Positions 45,722-59,768 of a stretch of DNA of 64,000 nucleotides are shown in pieces. Origin of the DNA: an uncultured Alphaproteobacteria bacterium. GTDB taxonomy: Bacteria; Pseudomonadota; Alphaproteobacteria; ATCC43930; CGMCC-115725. The notes under the pieces are model-generated. The model did not search any database. It had not been told where the DNA came from and was given only the letters and a program-made list of their open reading frames with translations. Position 1 is the first letter of the stretch, and each line of letters opens with the position of its first letter. The translations under genes and the position numbers were made by a program. The stretch is from contig CAVTLC010000048.1 in assembly GCA_963735445.1 (NCBI GenBank), forward strand, positions 5,721-69,720. The letters run 5' to 3'.

Positions 45722-46579
45722 CTAGGGGCGGACGACCGGGCCGCGTGAATCGGGGACGGTGGCCGCCTTCTCCTTCCAGTCCTTCGACCAAGGTGTCACC
45801 GGCTTTGGCACGGTCTTGCCATCGACCCGAATTTCGTCGACATGCTCGTTGTAGAAACAGAGATAGCCCTTGATTTTGGGACATTCCGGGATCGGGTCGG
45901 GATAGCTCCAGACGATGTCCTCATAGAGCCGGTCGCCGATCTTGGCCGAGTAATACCGCGCCTTGCCTTTGTAAGGGCAGGCCGTCGTCTTGTCGCTCGG
46001 GATCAGTAGATCCATGCGCACGTCTTCAGGCGGGATGTAGTAGCGGGTCGGCAACCGCGTTTCGAACAGAAACCGGGCGCGCCGTGTCTCGGCAAGAACT
46101 TCACCGCCGAGAATAACCTGCACCGGCCGTGAGGACTGGATCACGTCGACGCGCTTGTAAGGGTCGCGAGGGTGAACAAAGATCTCTTCATCCTCCTCGT
46201 ACCAATGATCAACTCGATCCCAGTAGAACGCGACGAAATCACCGATCTCGGCGACCTCCTCGAACGGGTCGGGATAACCCCAGACAGCGTTTTCTGAGGC
46301 CTTGTCGCCGACTTTTATCGTCCAGTATGACGCAGTCCCCTTATACGGACAGAAAGTGTGGTGGTCGGTTGGCGTCATCAGATCGAGCCGCACATCCGAC
46401 CGAGGAAAATAATACACCGGCAGGTGCCGGGTTTCGAACAGCAGACGAGCATTGGTGCTGTCGGCGATGGTTTCGCCGTTGAATGTGACCCGCACGCGAC
46501 GGGGCGAAGGCTCGAAGGTTATCTTGTAGTCGGGATTGGTCTTGAACCCGGATTCGCGCGTCTGCGGTGCGGCTGACAT
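45722..46579 (-). CDS. tandem DUF427-domain protein
   Basis: Two repeats of the pattern VRVTFNGETIADS...YYFPRSDV...FCPYKGTASYW / VILGGEVLAET...YYIPPEDV...ACPYKGKARYY, each followed by (N/D)(A/I)VWxYPDP. AGGAGG lies upstream of the ATG at 46579. Confidence 0.75.
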   Translation of the reverse strand: MSAAPQTRESGFKTNPDYKITFEPSPRRVRVTFNGETIADSTNARLLFETRHLPVYYFPRSDVRLDLMTPTDHHTFCPYKGTASYWTIKVGDKASENAVWGYPDPFEEVAEIGDFVAFYWDRVDHWYEEDEEIFVHPRDPYKRVDVIQSSRPVQVILGGEVLAETRRARFLFETRLPTRYYIPPEDVRMDLLIPSDKTTACPYKGKARYYSAKIGDRLYEDIVWSYPDPIPECPKIKGYLCFYNEHVDEIRVDGKTVPKPVTPWSKDWKEKAATVPDSRGPVVRP

Positions 46580-46697
46580 GATCGGGGCCTCCTTGTTCGC
46601 CTCGCCGGCCGAAATAGTGCGGTCGCGCAAACTTCCGCGCCGCTCTCGCCGGCCGCTCCCATTATATAAGCCGCGCTCTCGCGATGAAACCGAAGCG

Positions 46698-47189
46698 TCA
46701 GTCGGCGCCCTCGGCCGGGTCTGTCGAGTTTACACCCTCGGCTTCCGCTGCTTGTTCGATCAAATTGGCCTTCATCGCGATCATCATATCGAGAAGCAGG
46801 TCGCGGTCAGGCTCCGGGATGCCGGCAAGCGCATCTTCGCGGACCTCGGCAGCAAGCGCGAAAATCCGGTCGAGCAGTGGGTAAGCGGCTTCGGTCAGAT
46901 AAAGCAGGTGGGCGCGTCGATCCTTCGGATCGGGGCGGCGCTCGATAAGGCTGGCCGCCTGTAACCGATCGAGCAGCCGGGCTAGTGTGATCGGCTCCAA
47001 TTCCAGGATTTGCGCCAGGCTGACTTGATTGATGCCCTCCTGGCGCGCGAGGTTGGCGAGCACCGCGGCTTGCGCCCGGGTCAAGCCCAGCGAGGCGGCG
47101 CGCGCGCGCTGCTCGAACCGTTTGCGCATCAGACGCGCGACGTCGTTAAGGACAAAACCCAGGGTGCGGCTCGGGATTTCCTGGATCAT
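46698..47189 (-). CDS. MarR-family transcriptional regulator
   Basis: 163 aa. Winged-HTH region LTRAQAAVLANLARQEGINQVSLAQILELEPITLARLLDRLQAASLIERRPDPKDRR. Confidence 0.9.
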   Translation of the reverse strand: MIQEIPSRTLGFVLNDVARLMRKRFEQRARAASLGLTRAQAAVLANLARQEGINQVSLAQILELEPITLARLLDRLQAASLIERRPDPKDRRAHLLYLTEAAYPLLDRIFALAAEVREDALAGIPEPDRDLLLDMMIAMKANLIEQAAEAEGVNSTDPAEGAD

Positions 47190-47537: not shown

Positions 47538-47996
47538 CATAAAGCAGCCAGATGGCTGATGCCTGGACCGCAGACCGAAGGCAGCGGCAGCATAGGCTCG
47601 GGCTCTGGTCGATGCCGGTGGTGCAGGGGCAGACTGCACCCCGGCGCACAATCAGGCTGAACATACCTCGTATGTAAGCCGCGCGGCCGACAAGTTGCGG
47701 CGCGCCTAGCAAGCTCGGCCAGATACCGGGACTCATCAGGTCACCGTCAGCCCGCACATCATAGATGATGCCCCGGCGCGCGAAGCGGCGGCTCGAAGCG
47801 CGATCTGAGGTGACCACCAGATAGAAGTAAAAGCTTCTTCGAAGGCCGCCAACGTTGTCGAGTTGACCCGTCACTTTGTCGTGACCGGACCTTCCCTAAC
47901 GACCTGACTCGATACAAAATCTGACGCGATCGACACTCGGTCTGCATTGCACGCATACTCGTGCAATCGCTGGACTGTACGACTACGGAAGTCGAC

Positions 47997-48833
47997 ATGG
48001 GTATGCTACTGTCACAGGTAAGGCGGTATGTCGTATCTCTCGAGGTTCTCGTCTGTCCGGTCTTGGCTCTGTTGGCGTTAGGGTCATTGCTTGGCCTCGC
48101 CTCTCCGGCGCACGCCGATTACCCGGTGGCGCCCGATGTGGTCGTGTTTTGCGAGCCGACACTGCAGCACGTGGTCGCCGATATCGGGGCATTGTGGCGC
48201 GCGCGGACCGGCATCAAAGTCCGCGTCTTCACCTCGCCGACCCCGGCTTTGCTGCAGCAGATCGCGCATCATGCCCGCGATGACGTCGTTATCGGCGAGG
48301 GTGATGCGGAAGCTGATGCTGCCGCCGACCAACATCTGATCAAGAAGGAGACCGTCGAGCGCGTCTGGAGCAATCATCTCGTCGTCGCGTCGCTTTCCGG
48401 CGGCTCAGATGGTGCCGATGGTGGGTCACCCTCAGCCGACAAACTGGCAGCAGTCGCCGGCAAGGAACCGATTGCCGTTGTCGATCCGTGGGCGGCAACA
48501 GCCGGCGCCGATAGTCAAAAGGCGTTGCAATCGCTCGGCCTGTGGCAGGCGGTCAGCGCCAAGTCGATGGGCGTCGTCGGTACTGCGGACGCGGCCTACC
48601 TCTTGGCGCAGGGTAAGGTGAAGCTCGCGATTATCTATGCCACCGATGTCGCCGCCAACCCGGCATTCACGGTTGCCGAGCCCTTGCCGGCGGCGGGCTA
48701 TCCGCCAGTCGTCTATTGGGTCGCGCAGACCGAACACGCGTTGAGCCCGAATGCTTCGAAGTTTGTCACATTTTTGCGGTCCGCCGACGCGCAGCAAAGG
48801 GCCCGCGCCGACGGATTGGAGATTTTGCCGTGA
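47997..48833 (+). CDS. periplasmic substrate-binding protein, ModA (molybdate/tungstate-binding) family-like
   Basis: Signal peptide ...LLGLASPAHA. VVVFCEPTLQHVVADIGALWRARTGIKVRVFTSPTPALLQQI ... KLAIIYATDV follows the ModA fold pattern. The start is uncertain (ORF opens at 47961). Confidence 0.7.
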   Translation: MGMLLSQVRRYVVSLEVLVCPVLALLALGSLLGLASPAHADYPVAPDVVVFCEPTLQHVVADIGALWRARTGIKVRVFTSPTPALLQQIAHHARDDVVIGEGDAEADAAADQHLIKKETVERVWSNHLVVASLSGGSDGADGGSPSADKLAAVAGKEPIAVVDPWAATAGADSQKALQSLGLWQAVSAKSMGVVGTADAAYLLAQGKVKLAIIYATDVAANPAFTVAEPLPAAGYPPVVYWVAQTEHALSPNASKFVTFLRSADAQQRARADGLEILP

Positions 48834-49525
48834 CCGCTCCTGCCCAAACTCAGATCGTCTCACAGCGGAATGTGCAGCTGCATCCGCTGAGCCGCCGCAT
48901 CATGCACTGGATCAACGCTGGAGCGATCCTCGTGATGATCGGCAGCGGCTGGCGCATCTACAATTATTATCCGGCATTGCCGATCCATTTTGGCTTTCCG
49001 TTGAGCTGGACTTTAGGCGGCGATTTCCGGATCGACGAGGCAGTCAGCAACGAGGATGGTCTGGCAAACGCTCTGTTATGGCACTTCGCCGCGATGTGGG
49101 TTCTGGTATTGAATTTCCTCGCCTATGTCGTCATCGGTTTGGTTTCGGGGCATTTCCGCCGGGATTTTCTGCCGATTTCGGTGGGAGCTTTTTCTCGCGA
49201 CTTTTTTGCGGCACTGCGCGGACACCTCGGCCATCAGCTCGGCGAATACAATGCCGTGCAGAAGGTCTTTTACTGGGGTGTTCTGGCGGCCATTTTGGTT
49301 ACGATCCTCTCCGGGCTCAGTATCTGGAAGCCGGTGCAACTGCAGTGGCTGACCTGGTTGTTCGGAGGCTACGAATTTGCCCGGGTCGTGCACTTCTTTG
49401 GCATGGCGGCGATCGTCGGGTTTCTTGTCGTGCATCTGGCGCTGACGGCATTGGTGCCAAAGACTCTGGTCGCGATGGTCGTGGGTCGCGCCTCTGACAC
49501 GCCGCATCCGCGCGAGGGAGAATAG
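48830..49525 (+). CDS. membrane dihaem cytochrome b (cytochrome b561 / PhsC / Ni-Fe hydrogenase b-type family)
   Basis: The GTG at 48830 overlaps the upstream stop (GTGA). HPLSRRIMHWINAGAILVMIGSGWRIY, four TM helices with conserved His residues (HW, WHF, HFF..VVH). Confidence 0.8.
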   Translation: MTAPAQTQIVSQRNVQLHPLSRRIMHWINAGAILVMIGSGWRIYNYYPALPIHFGFPLSWTLGGDFRIDEAVSNEDGLANALLWHFAAMWVLVLNFLAYVVIGLVSGHFRRDFLPISVGAFSRDFFAALRGHLGHQLGEYNAVQKVFYWGVLAAILVTILSGLSIWKPVQLQWLTWLFGGYEFARVVHFFGMAAIVGFLVVHLALTALVPKTLVAMVVGRASDTPHPREGE

Positions 49526-49527
49526 CG

Positions 49528-50270
49528 ATGAGCCGTCTGGTCCTCGAGCGCAAACCGGTCGTGAACGCGATCGAGAGGCGAGTGTTTTTGCGCCAGACAT
49601 TAAGCCTCGGAGCGCTGACGTTGTTGACCGGTTGCGACGTATCCAATCACCGCAGCGTCCAAAATGTCCTGAAGGCGATGTCGCGGTGGAATGACCGCGC
49701 GCAGGCATTTCTGTTTAGCGATAAGAGGCTGGCGCCGACCTACTCGGAGAGCGATGTCGTTCGCGATTTCCGTTACAACGCCTTCTTCCCTGCTAGCGAT
49801 GCGCCGAAGCTTTTCTGCCGCCGATTATCGCCTCGAATTGTCCGGCCTGATTGCCGACAAGCGACCCTGGTCGGTCGAGCAGCTCTACACTCTGCCGCAA
49901 GAAAGCCAGATCACGCGCCACGTGTGCATCGAAGGGTGGAGCATGATCGGCAAGTGGAGCGGCCCGAAGCTGAGCGACTTTCTTGCAGCGGGTCGGGGCC
50001 GACCTTACCGCGAAATATGTCGGCTTTCAGTGCGCCGACGGCTATTATGGCAGTATCGACATGCCAACCGCCCTGCATCCCCAAACCATCATGGCCGTCA
50101 AATTCGCCGACGAGATACTGCCGGCTAAATACGGCTATCCGTTCAAGGTGCGCATCCCGACAAAACTCGGCTTTAAGAACCCGAAATGGGTGACGACAAT
50201 CTATGTCACCAATCGCTATCCGGGCGGGTTTTGGGAAGATCGCGGCTACAACTGGTTCAGCGGATCGTGA
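49528..50270 (+). pseudogene. molybdopterin-dependent oxidoreductase (sulfite-oxidase fold, YedY/MsrP-like), Tat-lipoprotein signal, two frameshifts
   Basis: ERRVFLRQTLSLGALTLLTGC (twin-Arg plus lipobox). HVCIEGWSMIGKWSGPKLSDFL. YVGFQCADGYYGSIDM...GYPFKVRIPTKLGFKNPKWVT. Frame changes at a T-run near 49812 and near 49985. Confidence 0.8.
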
Positions 50271-51082
50271 AGCCGAACGGTATTTCGCGTAAGGGCGGCT
50301 GCGCGATCGCGGTAATGGCCAAGGCTCCGGTGCCTGGCCAGGTCAAGACCCGGCTCGTCCCACCATTGACGCCAAGCATCGCCGCCGCGCTGAGTGCGGC
50401 GTTTCTGCGCGACGTCACCCGAAACATCACGCTCGCCGCTCGCGGCGCGAAAATATCCGGCTATGTCGCCTATGCACCGGCTGGCTCCGAAGCGTTGTTT
50501 GACGGAATGCTTGCCCAGGACACCCGTTTTGTCCTCGCGGACGGGGCAGCGGTAAGCGCGCCGCGTGTTCAGGGCTTTGGTCGGTGTTTGTTGCACGCAG
50601 CACAATCCTTGTTCGCCGATGGTCATCATTCGGTTTGCCTGTTGAACTCGGATAGTCCGAATTTGCCGACATCTCTGTTGTCGGAAGCGGCTCAGGTGCT
50701 TGCATTCGCGGGAGATCGCGTCGTCCTCGGTCCGGCCGAGGATGGCGGCTATTACCTGCTCGGGATGAAAGCGCCGCACCTGCACCTGTTTGAAGACATC
50801 GCCTGGAGCACGAGCAAGGTCGCCGCGCAGACCCGCGAACGGGCGGGAGCGCTCGGCCTGCCGGTCGTCGAGCTCGCCCCCTGGTATGATGTCGACGACG
50901 CGGTGGCGTTGCGTCGACTATGCCACGAACTGAACGCGCCATCGCGAGCCGGCCTCGATCCGTTTCGCGCGCCGGCGACGGCGGAATGCGTCGAGCGGCT
51001 GCGAATTCGCGAGCTGCTGACGGCGGAGCCAGGCGACAAATCGAGCGCATCCTGTCGGATCGAGGGAGCCAGTATTGCCTGA
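50267..51082 (+). CDS. DUF2064 (TIGR04282-type, CofC/MobA-like nucleotidyltransferase fold) protein
   Basis: The GTG at 50267 overlaps the upstream stop (GTGA). AVMAKAPVPGQVKTRL, LLNSDSPNLP, VLGPAEDGGYYLLG, IAWSTSKV, WYDVDD. Confidence 0.8.
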   Translation: MKPNGISRKGGCAIAVMAKAPVPGQVKTRLVPPLTPSIAAALSAAFLRDVTRNITLAARGAKISGYVAYAPAGSEALFDGMLAQDTRFVLADGAAVSAPRVQGFGRCLLHAAQSLFADGHHSVCLLNSDSPNLPTSLLSEAAQVLAFAGDRVVLGPAEDGGYYLLGMKAPHLHLFEDIAWSTSKVAAQTRERAGALGLPVVELAPWYDVDDAVALRRLCHELNAPSRAGLDPFRAPATAECVERLRIRELLTAEPGDKSSASCRIEGASIA

Positions 51083-52127
51083 GATCACACCAATCGTGGC
51101 CCGCCGCTATTTCGAGTTAGTAGACGAAAAGCGTTCGCCGATCGCCGAGGCGCCGCCGGTCTGCGTCTACCTCGAGGTCACCAACCGCTGCAATTTATTG
51201 TGCGAGACCTGCCCGCGCACATTCGAGGAATTGGAGCCGCCGGCGGATATGAGCTGGGAGCTCTTCACGTCGATCGTCGACCAGCTACCCGGCCTCACCC
51301 GCGCAGTCCTGCACGGCGTCGGCGAGCCGATGATGGTCAAAAATTTGCCGCGCATGATCCGCTATCTGAAACAGCGCGGTGTTTACGTTCTGTTTAACAC
51401 CAATGGCACATTGCTGGCGCCGCGCAAGCGTGGCGAGATCATCGATACCGGTCTCGACGAGTTGCGGGTGTCGCTCGATGCTGCCGAGGCGCAAAGCTTC
51501 TTCAAGGTCCGGGGCAAGAATTTCTTCGACCGCATTGTCCGCAACGTCGGCGAGTTCATAGCACTGCAGAAAGAGATCGGAGCCTCGACCCCGCGGGTTT
51601 CATTGTGGCTGACCGGCCTCAAGGAAACGGTAGAGCAACTGCCGGATTTTGTCAGGCTCGCGGCTCGGATCGGGGTTGGTGAAGTCTATTTACAGCGCCT
51701 GGTCTTTGACGATCTCGGCCGCGGGCTGGCGCGCGAAGAGTCGTCGTTGTTCGCCAAAACCCAGCGCGAGGAAGAGGAGGCAATCGCCGCGGCACAGGCG
51801 CTCGGACGCGAGCTTGGCGTCACGATCGATGCCTCGGGCGCGACCGAGCCCGGCGCCAGTCTGAAGCGCGCAGAGGAAAACGCGCCATGGTCGGGCTGTC
51901 GCCGCCCGTGGTCGCTGATGTACTTCACCGCACATGGCCGCGCGTTGCCATGCTGCATTGCGCCGTTTTCCGCGCGCGGCTACGAGACCTACACCCTCGG
52001 CAATGCAACCCAAGAGACCTTGCGCGAGATCTGGAACGGCAGCGCGTACCAGGATTTTCGCGCCGCTTTGGTGGGCGATACGCCGCCGAAACCGTGCCAG
52101 AATTGCGGTTTGCGATGGAGCCTGTAG
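51075..52127 (+). CDS. radical SAM enzyme with a C-terminal SPASM-type Cys-rich domain
   Basis: CX3CX2C in VTNRCNLLCETCPR. GEPMM (GGE-like) and NTNGTLL. C-terminal CRRPW...LPCCIAPF...CQNCG. TTG start with upstream GGGAG, overlapping the upstream gene by 8 nt. Confidence 0.85.
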   Translation: MPEITPIVARRYFELVDEKRSPIAEAPPVCVYLEVTNRCNLLCETCPRTFEELEPPADMSWELFTSIVDQLPGLTRAVLHGVGEPMMVKNLPRMIRYLKQRGVYVLFNTNGTLLAPRKRGEIIDTGLDELRVSLDAAEAQSFFKVRGKNFFDRIVRNVGEFIALQKEIGASTPRVSLWLTGLKETVEQLPDFVRLAARIGVGEVYLQRLVFDDLGRGLAREESSLFAKTQREEEEAIAAAQALGRELGVTIDASGATEPGASLKRAEENAPWSGCRRPWSLMYFTAHGRALPCCIAPFSARGYETYTLGNATQETLREIWNGSAYQDFRAALVGDTPPKPCQNCGLRWSL

Positions 52128-52855
52128 CCGCTGCTGTCGTCATCCCGACCTTCAACGAAGCTCAATCAATCAAAGGAGTCGTTGCGGAGATCCCGCGCGA
52201 GTTGGCGAGCGAGATCATCGTCGTCGATGGCGGCAGCGATGACGGCACCCAATCAATAGCGGCGAGCGCCGGCGCACGTGTCATCTCGGTGGGCGCTCGG
52301 GGATATGGCCGCGCCTGCATGGCCGGCGTCGCGGCAGCATCCTCCGAATGCGGCATCATCGTGTTTATGGATGGCGATGGCGCCGATCGCGGTGATCTGA
52401 TGATGCGGCTCGTCGAGCCGATCCGGCGCGGCGAATATGATTTCGTTATCGCTTCGCGCGCCCGCGGCGAACGCGAGCCAGGCGCCATGAGCTGGCACCA
52501 GCTATTGGCCGGTTATCTCGCCGGGCTCGGCACCAAGGCGCTATACGGCGTGCGCTACACCGATATGTGCGCTTATCGCGCGATCCGCCGCGACTGTCTC
52601 GAACGCCTGGGTATGCGCGAAATGACCTACGGCTGGAACATCGAGATGCAGATGCGAGCGGCGCGCGCCGGATTGCGTATTCTCGAACTGCCGATGCCAT
52701 ATCGCCGGCGCAGCGGCGGCGCCTCTAAGGTTGCGGGCTCATTGCGCGGTTCGCTGCGAGCTGCGGTGCGGATCGTCGCTACTTTTGCTCGAGTCGCCAC
52801 GGCCCCAAGCGATAATGATCAATTGCGGTCGCGCACACCGTCCGCTGCTCGATAA
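52115..52855 (+). CDS. GT2 glycosyltransferase (soluble DPM1/Ppm1-like polyprenyl-phosphate sugar synthase type)
   Basis: VVIPTFNEAQSI, IIVVDGGSDDGT, VFMDGDGADRGD, YGWNIEMQ. The ATG at 52115 overlaps the rSAM gene by 13 nt. Confidence 0.85.
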   Translation: MEPVAAAVVIPTFNEAQSIKGVVAEIPRELASEIIVVDGGSDDGTQSIAASAGARVISVGARGYGRACMAGVAAASSECGIIVFMDGDGADRGDLMMRLVEPIRRGEYDFVIASRARGEREPGAMSWHQLLAGYLAGLGTKALYGVRYTDMCAYRAIRRDCLERLGMREMTYGWNIEMQMRAARAGLRILELPMPYRRRSGGASKVAGSLRGSLRAAVRIVATFARVATAPSDNDQLRSRTPSAAR

Positions 52856-54812
52856 ATCCGCCAGCGCCCTGCCCTCTCTTCGACCAGGCGGAAATAGCCG
52901 CTCATTGCGAAGACGTCACGGCGCCATGCGCCGTCGCTCGGGGTCACCACAACAACACGGCAATCGAAGCGAGCAACAAGATCCCTGACTTCCTCCGGCG
53001 AGGCGTCGCCGGCGAATATGCGTTTGAACAAGGCGCTGATCCGGTCGATCTCGGGACCCGGCAATGGCACAAAGGCGCGCGCCAAATTCCAGCCGGCGTA
53101 GCAGGAGCGGCGATCCGCCAGTAATGCCCAGGAAAGATTGACGGGCCAGCGCACGCTGTCGGCGAGGAATGAGGGATTGTTGGCGACGCGCTCTGCTGGT
53201 GCAGTGTGGCGGCGGACGGCGGCCCAGAGTTCCGGAGCGCCGGCAAAGATTGGCGCTGACGGCGAGTGCAGGCCGGTCGCATTCTCTTGGATTATCCGCA
53301 GACCGCCGGGAATACCAAGTACCCAGAATGCGACGCCTGCGATGGCGAGGCTGCGCCTGGTCGGAATCCAGCACGCGAGGCCCGCGGCGGCGAAGATCGT
53401 CAGGACGAGGATACCGGGCAGCACGCCCCGCCAGCCGAGATCATTGTTCGCAATTGTGCTGGCGAAGAGCCAGGGAACCGCGAAGCTCGCAAGAGCGAGC
53501 AGGGCAAGCCCGACAGCAAATCTCTGTTCGGCGAGCGCCCTTCCCTTCTCGGCAATTCTTTCGGAAATGGCCCAGAGCCCCGGTGAAATAAATTGCCGGA
53601 AACTCGATCACCGTAAGGATCAGCCAAAAGGCAAGCAGGTTCAGATATGGCCGGACCGCTGCCGGAATGATCGGACCCAGCACCGCGAATGGGTGAAAGG
53701 CAATCGGAGCCCCCGCCCCCCGGGCCGCGGTTGCGAAAAACTGGTCGCGCAAGAAAGGAAACGCGATTGCCACCGCAAGAACGACCGCCAGCGTCCCCTT
53801 AAAGAGGAGGTCGACCCGAGCTCGACCGTCTTCGGCCATGACCAGGAGAGCGATGGTAATCGGCAGCGCCGCCGCGGCAAAGATGACGCCGCCCACCCAG
53901 GCAGAGCTTTCGAACGCAGCGGCTGCGACGACCGCCAGCAGCGGCGCGATCAGCCAATCGCGTGAGACGGCTAGTCGGGACAAGAGTAGCACCGCCACCA
54001 CGACGCAGCCTGCCGAAGCCAAGTGCTGTGGCGCCCAGCTCGCCTGAAATATCCAGCTTTCCGGCCATTGAGTTTGGGCCAGCACGCGGTCGAGGACGGT
54101 GGCGGGAAGTGCCCAGCCGAGCGCGGGTTTCAGCGATGCGGAGAGGCTGAGCAACACCACCAAGAATGCCGCGATTGTCCGTCCTGCGAACCAGACCGCG
54201 AGCCCGATCATCAGGCACAGCGAGGCGAAAGCGGTGAACCAGGTCAGCGCGATATCGGCTTCCCACCCGCTGGCGCCAAACAATAGTGGCCGGGATCGCA
54301 GCGCTGAAGTGCCACAGGTAGTAGTAAACGAGGCGCGGCCCACTGCCGGCAAAAAACGGATTGCCCGGTGGTAGTCCCAAGCGGATGATGTCGTCGATAA
54401 TGGCCGCTTTCGAGTGGTCGAACATCGCTTCGCTGAGAACTATTCCCCCGGCGCCGAATTTCGGCCAAACCGCAAGCGCCGGTACGACGGCGAGTAATGC
54501 CGCAGCGGCGAGGACCAACACCGAAACACCAACCGGACGGGGTTCCACCACTGGCGGCCGCTGCCGCCGAGATACCGCGAGGCCTCCAAGGACCGCAGCG
54601 CCGGAAAGCATCGCCACGGTGGCGCGCGTAAAGCTGGTCGCTGTCAGGATCGGCAACGCCAGTGCATTAAAGACGGCCCATCCCGCGGCTGGCGCCAGCA
54701 CCAGAGCCACGACGCGAGGCGCAGCGATGCGGCGCATTACCGCCCATCCCACGCAAAAGCTGATCACCAGCTCCGCAACAGCGCAGAGCAACACAACAGG
54801 AAAGGATGGCAT
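52819..54812 (-). pseudogene. large polytopic membrane protein, GT-C-like putative glycosyltransferase, two frameshifts
   Basis: Three ORF pieces (53799..54812, 53441..54352, 52819..53424 plus upstream) join into about 660 aa with more than 12 TM segments, a PPGNPFFAG...LVYYYLWHF loop motif and a soluble C-terminal domain of about 130 aa. Shifts lie near 54285 and at a C4/G4 run at 53578-53581. The 3' end overlaps the GT2 gene by 37 nt. Confidence 0.65.

Positions 54813-55097: not shown

Positions 55098-59768
<4,671 letters not shown>

Follow-up and report, generated by a model that had tools for sequence, protein, structure and literature searches.

In bacteria, lipopolysaccharide (LPS), teichoic acids, arabinan and proteins are decorated outside the cytoplasm by a standard route, in which a polyprenyl-phosphate (Pren-P) sugar synthase works together with a glycosyltransferase of the GT-C fold. 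Three-component systems of this kind include GtrA/GtrB/GtrC, ArnC/ArnT, Dpm1/PMT and RgtE/RgtD. Sugars are also substrates of radical S-adenosylmethionine (SAM) enzymes: DesII and BlsE modify nucleotide- or nucleoside-linked sugars, and HygY and AprD4 are further sugar-modifying members. To our knowledge neither these four nor the radical SAM enzyme BtrN has a place in any polyprenyl-phosphate or GT-C pathway. A third relative is the cassette which, going by family descriptions, presumably combines TIGR04282 and TIGR04283 proteins with a radical SAM enzyme of the ArsS type. The pentofuranose systems have been described as three-component polyprenyl-phosphate-sugar glycosylation (PMC11127046). 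Here we describe a cassette found in a 64-kb stretch of DNA from an uncultured alphaproteobacterium (contig CAVTLC010000048.1 of assembly GCA_963735445.1, positions 5,721 to 69,720; the whole stretch is referred to as the window and coordinates are counted within it). It encodes a DUF2064 protein, a radical SAM enzyme, a soluble GT2 glycosyltransferase and a converging membrane protein with a predicted GT-C fold, and is a candidate for periplasmic glycosylation with a sugar made by radical SAM chemistry.

One genome per species was scanned with an alignment of seven radical SAM sequences, and of at least 600 candidate stretches at least 576 were found to encode a relative of the window enzyme. 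The best 80 of these loci, in which the radical SAM protein is 72-99% identical to that of the window, were compared. They belong to Stellaceae, Acetobacteraceae (Rhodopila, Acidisphaera, Acidocella, Lichenicoccus) and Methylobacterium/Methylorubrum, cultured strains included. Co-occurrence was counted by mapping the proteins of one orthologous locus (L002) onto those 52 species-level loci that have 6 kb or more of flank on each side (hereafter full-flank loci). DUF2064 was present in 51/52, GT2 in 46/52 and a GT-C of any type in 47/52, whilst all four genes were found together in 45/52, as would be expected from the original prediction that they act as one system. Moreover, among 1.8 billion cluster representatives there are five proteins in which DUF2064 is fused to the radical SAM/SPASM enzyme and one in which GT2 is. 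Three fusion operons, with about 40% identity in the radical SAM enzyme, were examined. Two of them encode a GT87 protein, a CelA/PgaC-like GT2, a small AglJ-like GT2 and the fused DUF2064-radical SAM protein; the third (L086/L087) holds the same genes otherwise, with no GT87 gene called. Taken together, the co-conservation, the fusions and the distant lineage at about 40% identity point to a four-part composition that is old and selected, and on these sequence comparisons the four genes appear to form a real functional unit. That they are mere neighbours, kept side by side by shared ancestry and with no common function, is hardly credible. The best 80 loci are nearly all alphaproteobacterial and some of the synteny will have been inherited, but the existence of domain fusions contradicts this explanation, the gene set is kept in another order in the distant lineage, gene order is rearranged with content kept in loci L011, L071 and L079, and the flanking genes of L001 and L002 differ.

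The metagenomic contigs of the fused lineage (L085-L089) encode a CelA/PgaC/MftF-like GT2 of 480 aa, and multihaem cytochromes are found among the neighbours. Just downstream in L086/L087 and L088/L089 lies a gene for a lipoprotein of about 245 aa with no family assignment, the two versions sharing 48% identity. Elsewhere, the MAG (metagenome-assembled genome) contig CAWBUL010000006.1 carries two DUF2064-radical SAM pairs about 750 kb apart (L064 and L067), and within 10 kb of either pair neither a GT2 nor a GT-C was detected; at L060 the radical SAM gene adjoins cytochrome b and molybdenum (Mo)-oxidoreductase genes only. These three loci are incomplete or remodelled cassettes.

The converging membrane protein is recognisable as a GT-C by its predicted fold only. 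Among 30 members of its family there was no Pfam match below E 0.02, and no NCBIfam or PDB profile matched either; a hit of an N-terminal fragment to Chlor_Arch_YYY (TIGR03662; E 0.0024, 16.6 bits against a cut-off of 300) was not used. An AlphaFold2 model of an intact ortholog (P0121, built with 30 homologs) reached a pLDDT of 79 and a pTM of 0.86, and the 12 best Foldseek matches to PDB structures were GT-C enzymes without exception (DPY19, STT3, AftA, PglB and Pmt4; probability 1.00, E 7e-7 to 1e-2, TM score 0.34-0.53). The protein is accordingly modelled as a GT-C glycosyltransferase, the fold first proposed for it. A search of 5.8 billion proteins returned 1280 homologs at E <= 1e-3, which make up a sequence family with no existing profile, here called the Stellaceae type. 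Within it D132, in the motif FDHSK, and the motif YYYLWH are invariant, and D141 is conserved in at least 90% of members. GT-C enzymes typically have a conserved acidic residue in an N-terminal extracytoplasmic loop; here both aspartates lie in a loop (residues 115-164) that follows four helices, not one, and which by the positive-inside rule (R26/R27, R82-R87) would face the periplasm.

Two types of protein fill the GT-C slot, namely the protein of about 660 aa (Stellaceae, plus L071 and L079) and a GT87-like one. A gene for the latter, encoding about 450 aa (PF09594), is found between DUF2064 and the radical SAM gene in 41/52 full-flank loci, and its profile matches PIG-M, which depends on Dol-P-Man. 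Homology between the two types was considered and rejected (hhalign probability 0.3%, no detectable sequence similarity). Since both types are linked to the cassette in several arrangements, it is the GT-C function itself that appears to be required. The original prediction had taken the GT-C for a local addition; instead it belongs to the cassette as an integral, ancient component, mostly GT87-like in other lineages.

The size given for the membrane protein in the window was right, but a single protein of about 660 aa is obtained only after repair of two +1 frameshifts. Relative to intact orthologs the gene has two uncompensated +1 insertions, near 53579 (in a run of C) and near 54284. Two +1 frameshifts are also present in the Mo-oxidoreductase gene upstream of the cassette, at about 49811 and 49979, both in runs of T (relative to L005), whilst the DUF2064-radical SAM-GT2 trio is free of them. 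Homopolymer runs hold 3 of the 4 mapped indels. In a second MAG, from the same project (L001/L006), the cytochrome b and GT-C genes are also broken, which favours sequencing errors over pseudogenes; long-read homopolymer errors are the more likely explanation of the indels. Elsewhere in the window, gltB too is broken by an uncompensated single-base insertion, being split near 57740.

Two of the remaining proteins suggest how a sugar could be supplied to the GT-C. The DUF2064 protein passes the TIGR04282 cut-off (146.1 bits against 134, over profile positions 1-186 of 189) and matches PF09837 with 88 bits, so that the family assignment holds in both Pfam and NCBIfam. Invariant in the family alignment are the motifs KTRL, DxP and DGGY, which we take to resemble those of CofC/MobA-type nucleotidyltransferases. 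In the PDB the protein matches 3cgx ('putative nucleotide-diphospho-sugar transferase') with E 8e-18 by sequence and 8e-36 by family profile, and the next match of the profile is the FbiD/CofC guanylyltransferase 6bwg (E 1e-4). It is therefore described here as a putative CofC/FbiD-like nucleotidyltransferase. In-frame TGA codons in tblastn matches, considered as possible selenocysteine sites, proved to be true stops overrun by the alignment. The GT2 (PF00535) has AglJ as its best NCBIfam match (120 bits against a cut-off of 325), followed by dolichyl-P-hexose transferase and PpgS, with no equivalog cut-off reached; this is in keeping with the soluble DPM1-like enzyme originally described. Its nearest PDB relative is the Dol-P-Man synthase of P. 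furiosus (5mlz, E 1e-9, residues 5-209), whose membrane helices it does not have, and its N-terminal half is also GpgS/MpgS-like. We regard it as a putative polyprenyl-phosphate sugar synthase of the DPM1/AglJ type. The TIGR04283 cut-off is not reached (50.1 bits against 182, the alignment being confined to the N-terminal 83 residues).

The radical SAM enzyme matches PF04055 (47 bits), its CX3CX2C motif being CNLLCETC at residues 39-46, with cysteines invariant in 20 homologs. The C-terminal domain matches the SPASM domain PF13186 (56 bits) and contains five cysteines, arranged as C275-X12-G-X4-C293-C294 and then C341-X2-C344; four are invariant and one near-invariant in homolog alignments. 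A full SPASM domain, with two auxiliary clusters, has a seven-cysteine motif, CX9-15GX4C ... CX2CX5CX3C ... C, which is not found in this enzyme, the CX5CX3C part being absent. Five cysteines are enough for one auxiliary cluster, and the domain is probably a one-cluster, twitch-like one; the combination of CX12GX4C with a distant CX2C resembles what we take to be the twitch arrangement of BtrN. A single cluster is bound by twitch domains, of which the known examples, BtrN and MoaA, have small-molecule substrates (PMC9012708). The SPASM label given to the enzyme at first thus agrees with the PF13186 match, but the enzyme is probably twitch-like and not full SPASM.

No NCBIfam equivalog cut-off was reached by the radical SAM enzyme. 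The best match was TIGR04317 (W-cofactor maturase; 137 bits against 380), with PqqE at 65 against 381, MoaA at 46 against 284 and anSME-like and other models far below, so that the enzyme falls under every cut-off for the characterised clades PqqE, MoaA, anSME, MftC, NirJ/AhbD, W-cofactor maturase and Tes. On these scores it appears to belong to no characterised clade, as the prediction of a new system presupposed. The ArsS/DUF3641, HpnH and MqnE types are absent from its 25 best NCBIfam matches and no ArsS/DUF3641 match was found in Pfam, in agreement with the suggestion that the usual ArsS-type partner has been replaced here by an enzyme with a PF13186 domain. Exact-sequence look-ups of the window protein and of P0001, the representative of its cluster with 100% identity to it, returned no record; close homologs number in the thousands, the top 120 (81-100% identity) coming mostly from soil metagenomes and Stellaceae MAGs. 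The best PDB match by sequence is PqqE (E 2e-10), and MoaA and BtrN are also matched. Using an AlphaFold2 model (pLDDT 86), the top Foldseek matches were DesII (E 3e-14, TM score 0.64-0.70) and BlsE, the pair spanning E 3e-14 to 3e-13 and TM scores of 0.59-0.70. Slightly weaker scores were obtained for SkfB, PqqE, SuiB (these three at E about 1e-12 to 1e-11), GDGT-MAS, BtrN, MoaA and viperin.

The matches to SkfB, PqqE and SuiB bear on an alternative in which one target, be it a ribosomally synthesised and post-translationally modified peptide (RiPP) or a protein such as the Mo-oxidoreductase lipoprotein encoded upstream, is both matured by the radical SAM enzyme and glycosylated by the GT2 and GT-C. 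SPASM enzymes are mostly peptide maturases, and the top NCBIfam matches TIGR04317 and TIGR04311 are 'metalloenzyme maturase' families, though far under their cut-offs. Furthermore, it is protein glycosyltransferases (DPY19, STT3/PglB, Pmt) that the GT-C matches best in structure, and in alphaproteobacterial and fused-lineage operons alike a lipoprotein gene adjoins the cassette. However, when open reading frames (ORFs) of 20-110 aa outside known genes were clustered over 81 loci, no family occurred in more than 9 of them, and the best candidate (9/81) looks like out-of-frame noise. The original prediction that the system has no small precursor is therefore upheld beyond the window, in which the overlapping genes leave no space for one. 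A one-cluster arrangement is typical of small-molecule enzymes, and the fusion of the radical SAM enzyme to a nucleotidyltransferase-like domain suits small-molecule chemistry better; the Mo enzyme, for its part, is absent from 19/52 full-flank loci and from the fused lineage. The lack of precursor space, the one-cluster domain and the fusion together make peptide maturation unlikely, and we give this alternative as a whole little credence. The preference originally expressed for a radical-modified, lipid-linked sugar over a RiPP thus stands as regards the peptide, whilst the sugar chemistry itself stays putative.

From the composition, co-conservation, fusions and folds we infer a scheme of four steps for glycosylation in the periplasm, whose substrate, step order and acceptor are proposals, and whether the scheme as a whole is right seems to us evenly balanced. 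Initially, the DUF2064 protein would activate a phosphorylated sugar or sugar-like unit as a nucleoside diphosphate (NDP) derivative. The radical SAM enzyme, with one auxiliary cluster like BtrN and a DesII/BlsE-like fold, would then modify the unit by abstraction of a hydrogen atom, for example in an oxidation, epimerisation, deamination/dehydration or decarboxylation. The DPM1/AglJ-like GT2 would move it to polyprenyl phosphate at the inner membrane face and, after flipping, the GT-C would transfer it to an acceptor in the periplasmic envelope, be it LPS, a glycan, a lipid or a lipoprotein. Several points weigh against this scheme. Its steps are read from sequence and predicted folds, and the RiPP maturases score so near to DesII and BlsE that the fold leaves the substrate class of the radical SAM enzyme unsettled. 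The GT2 has no membrane domain and its N-terminal half is also similar to soluble GpgS/MpgS, which leaves polyprenyl phosphate as its acceptor putative. No flippase is evident in the window, and since the GT-C gene is frameshifted there the system may be inactive in this genome, or the assembly error-prone. Lastly, the PNP-family gene linked to the cassette in a number of loci (see below) hints at nucleoside chemistry that the scheme does not need.

The layout of the cassette in the window is given in Table 1. ORF listing and translation confirmed the tight packing that had been reported for the three genes on the + strand, with overlaps of 8 nt between DUF2064 and the radical SAM gene and 13 nt between the latter and GT2, as well as the 37-nt overlap of the converging membrane gene with the 3' end of GT2. 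All the motifs quoted for the four proteins were recovered (AVMAKAPVPGQVKTRL, GPAEDGGYYLLG, CNLLCETC, CRRPW, CCIAPF, CQNCG, VVDGGSDDGT, FMDGDGAD and YYYLWHF). The 13-nt and 37-nt overlaps are repeated in L002. Gene starts in the window agree with those of intact orthologs, and the TTG start of the radical SAM gene is supported by orthologs that begin MPE. The trio originally described is real but its extent was too short, as three upstream genes belong to the operon. The GTG of DUF2064 overlaps the stop of the Mo-oxidoreductase gene as GTGA, and therefore the operon does not begin at 50267; the GTG of the cytochrome b gene lies on the stop of the ModA-like gene in the same manner. Six genes, spanning about 47997-52855, are translationally coupled, and in this genome the trio is co-transcribed with the Mo-oxidoreductase/cytochrome b/ModA-like module. 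The ModA-like gene is probably the first of the operon. Its start is uncertain, as a GTG at 47961 opens the ORF and the first methionine is at 47997, and a promoter-like site on weak evidence precedes it.

Table 1. Features of the cassette and linked genes. Positions are those of the window unless a locus is named.
Feature	Position	Strand	Basis
DUF427/NTP_transf_9 protein	45722-46630	-	
MarR-family regulator	46698-47189	-	
Promoter-like site	47930-47959		weak evidence
ModA-like periplasmic solute-binding protein, signal peptide	47997-48833	+	tblastn against L002 ortholog, 68% identity
Cytochrome b561-type membrane protein	48830-49525	+	PF01292; tblastn against L002 ortholog, 81% identity
Mo-oxidoreductase, small sulfite-oxidase fold, MsrP-like	49528-50270	+	tblastn match in three frames
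DUF2064/TIGR04282 protein	50267 (GTG) to 51082	+	PF09837, TIGR04282
Radical SAM enzyme	51075 (TTG) to 52127	+	PF04055, PF13186
GT2, soluble, 246 aa	52115 (ATG) to 52855	+	PF00535
Converging polytopic membrane protein, about 660 aa	54812 to 52819	-	tblastn in three frames against intact L002 ortholog
PNP/DoxX-like linked-gene sites in other loci	L033:11745-13198, L071:431-1225, L079:9036-9755, L011:8915-9697, L072:6962-7831, others		

On the 5' side of the six genes an intergenic region of about 800 bp is followed by the MarR gene, which, with the DUF427 gene, diverges from the operon. L001 shares this arrangement but L002 does not, and any regulatory link is tentative. The L002 ortholog of the ModA-like protein matches PF13531 and scores 74 bits against the TIGR01256 modA cut-off of 62.5. 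The Mo-oxidoreductase carries a twin-arginine translocation (Tat) motif, ERRVFLR, and a lipobox, LLTGC, marking it as a lipoprotein, and its ortholog matches PF00174 and, weakly, MsrP. Amongst full-flank loci the Mo-oxidoreductase is linked to the cassette in 33/52 (63%), the cytochrome b in 30/52 and the ModA-like protein in 22/52. The module usually lies upstream, but is downstream in L049, L060 and L077 and inverted in L079, making three arrangements, and it was absent from the fused-lineage operons examined.

This linkage raises the alternative that the adjacent Mo-oxidoreductase uses a pterin, molybdenum or other redox cofactor which DUF2064 and the radical SAM enzyme synthesise or modify. 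The translational coupling in the window and the three arrangements of the module would suit it, as would the relationship of DUF2064 to MobA and CofC (FbiD/CofC being its nearest characterised relative) and that of the radical SAM enzyme to the tungsten-cofactor maturase and to MoaA, which is among both its sequence and its fold matches. We nevertheless consider it very unlikely. A DPM1-like GT2 and a GT-C are near-universal in the cassette, and we know of no role for such a pair in any cofactor pathway. The module is missing from 37% of the loci and from the distant fused operons, and enzymes of the sulfite-oxidase fold use plain molybdenum-molybdopterin. Moreover, an Rfam scan of the whole window found no RNA family and no riboswitch, including the molybdenum cofactor riboswitch.

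Other families linked to the cassette were found by clustering the remaining ORFs of the 81 loci. A PNP_UDP_1 phosphorylase gene, distantly DeoD-, AMP-nucleosidase- or HpnG-like (22-26 bits against the HpnG cut-off of 187), occurs in at least 17 of them in at least five different positions and orientations, and a gene for a small DoxX/DoxD-like membrane protein in at least 20. Their placement varies, being directly before the radical SAM gene (L071, L079), after GT2 (L033, L047, L081) or after GT87 (L011). Neither is found in the 64-kb window, and most loci, as well as the distant fused operons, have no PNP gene. The flippase missing from the proposed scheme might be the DoxX-like protein. As for the phosphorylase, the futalosine (MqnE/MqnB) and arsenosugar pathways likewise use adenosylation by a radical SAM enzyme followed by removal of adenine; a PNP/MTAN-type enzyme beside any radical SAM enzyme can also simply clear the inhibitory by-product 5'-deoxyadenosine. 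In the HpnH/HpnG pair, the radical SAM enzyme adds an adenosyl group and the phosphorylase removes the adenine (PMC13459092). The PNP protein of these loci may act in either way, on an adenosylated intermediate or on 5'-deoxyadenosine.

In a route of the former kind, the radical SAM enzyme would add the 5'-deoxyadenosyl radical to a species X and the PNP would strip off adenine to leave a 5-substituted ribose-1-phosphate, from which DUF2064 would make an NDP-sugar for the GT2 and GT-C to pass via polyprenyl phosphate to an acceptor in the periplasm. The ModA-like/Mo-oxidoreductase/cytochrome b module could handle X, which might derive from an oxyanion or be a metalloid species. The HpnH/HpnG precedent, the PNP gene adjoining the cassette and the linkage of the Mo-oxidoreductase module in 33/52 full-flank loci, in rearranged orders, speak for such a route. 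So does the TIGR04282 score of DUF2064, as NCBIfam names this family for arsenosugar biosynthesis ('arsenosugar biosynthesis glycosyltransferase'); the cassette with TIGR04283 and ArsS, formerly 'rSAM/selenodomain-associated', now bears that name too. The radical SAM enzyme, however, is not of the ArsS, HpnH or MqnE type, the GT2 fails TIGR04283, the PNP gene has the patchy distribution described above and its product could merely clear 5'-deoxyadenosine. We hold this route to be improbable.

Returning to glycosylation by a radical-SAM-made sugar, a bolder form of the idea would make the cassette a new class of envelope glycosylation. Here the product of a one-cluster radical SAM enzyme would be a non-canonical sugar, which might be a 5-substituted ribose with its origin in the adenosyl group of SAM, like those of the arsenosugar and hopanoid pathways. 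The CofC-like DUF2064 enzyme would activate it with a nucleotide, the GT2 would load it onto polyprenyl phosphate and the GT-C would attach it in the periplasm. A possible target is the lipoprotein encoded alongside (the Mo-oxidoreductase here, the 245 aa protein in the fused lineage). This is a speculation that we advance tentatively. If true, a Pren-P/GT-C pathway would depend on radical SAM chemistry, a case of which we found no description. No account of the cassette, nor of a radical SAM enzyme and a CofC-like nucleotidyltransferase fixed in a Pren-P/GT-C system, was found in the literature on DUF2064, TIGR04282/TIGR04283 and radical SAM plus GT-C, so that the original statement that no characterised system has this composition can be maintained; a 2026 review of lipid-modifying radical SAM enzymes mentions no polyprenyl-linked substrate (PMC13459092). 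The cassette is common, with at least 576 candidate stretches from species-representative genomes, and its radical SAM enzyme is unusually conserved (72-99% over three alphaproteobacterial families). Among its carriers are methylotrophs that are in culture and tractable, Methylorubrum rhodinum DSM 2163 and Methylobacterium indicum SE2.11 being two of them. An understanding of the cassette would give a function for DUF2064, a new sugar-modifying radical SAM reaction and a new GT-C sequence family, with the possible gain of an envelope modification in acid-soil and plant-associated bacteria.

Compared with the three-component Pren-P systems, the cassette shares a DPM1-like GT2 and a GT-C, implying a lipid-linked monosaccharide donor used outside the cytoplasm. 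It differs in adding a radical SAM enzyme and DUF2064 as obligatory enzymes, and in that the Stellaceae GT-C fits no described sequence family. Unlike the Gtr and Arn systems, no GtrA-type flippase is seen in the window and the GT2 is without the C-terminal membrane helices of GtrB and ArnC. With the TIGR04282/TIGR04283/ArsS cassette it has in common the set of DUF2064, GT2 and radical SAM enzyme, the TIGR04282 cut-off being passed; however, the radical SAM enzyme here is of the SPASM/twitch kind, the GT2 is AglJ/DPM1-like and outside TIGR04283, and a GT-C is integral. In structure the radical SAM enzyme comes closest to DesII and BlsE, and BtrN is also matched, but at 13-21% sequence identity and with no equivalog model reached. 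In the hopanoid and calditol systems, HpnJ and calditol synthase (Cds) are not SPASM/twitch enzymes of this clade, and neither system has a GT-C or DUF2064. Nonetheless HpnH/HpnG, HpnI/HpnJ/HpnK and Cds are precedents for radical SAM chemistry at a GT2-made sugar head group carried by a lipid, and the pairing of a radical SAM enzyme with a PNP-family phosphorylase in HpnH/HpnG (PMC13459092) is paralleled by the PNP_UDP_1 gene linked to the cassette in some genera.

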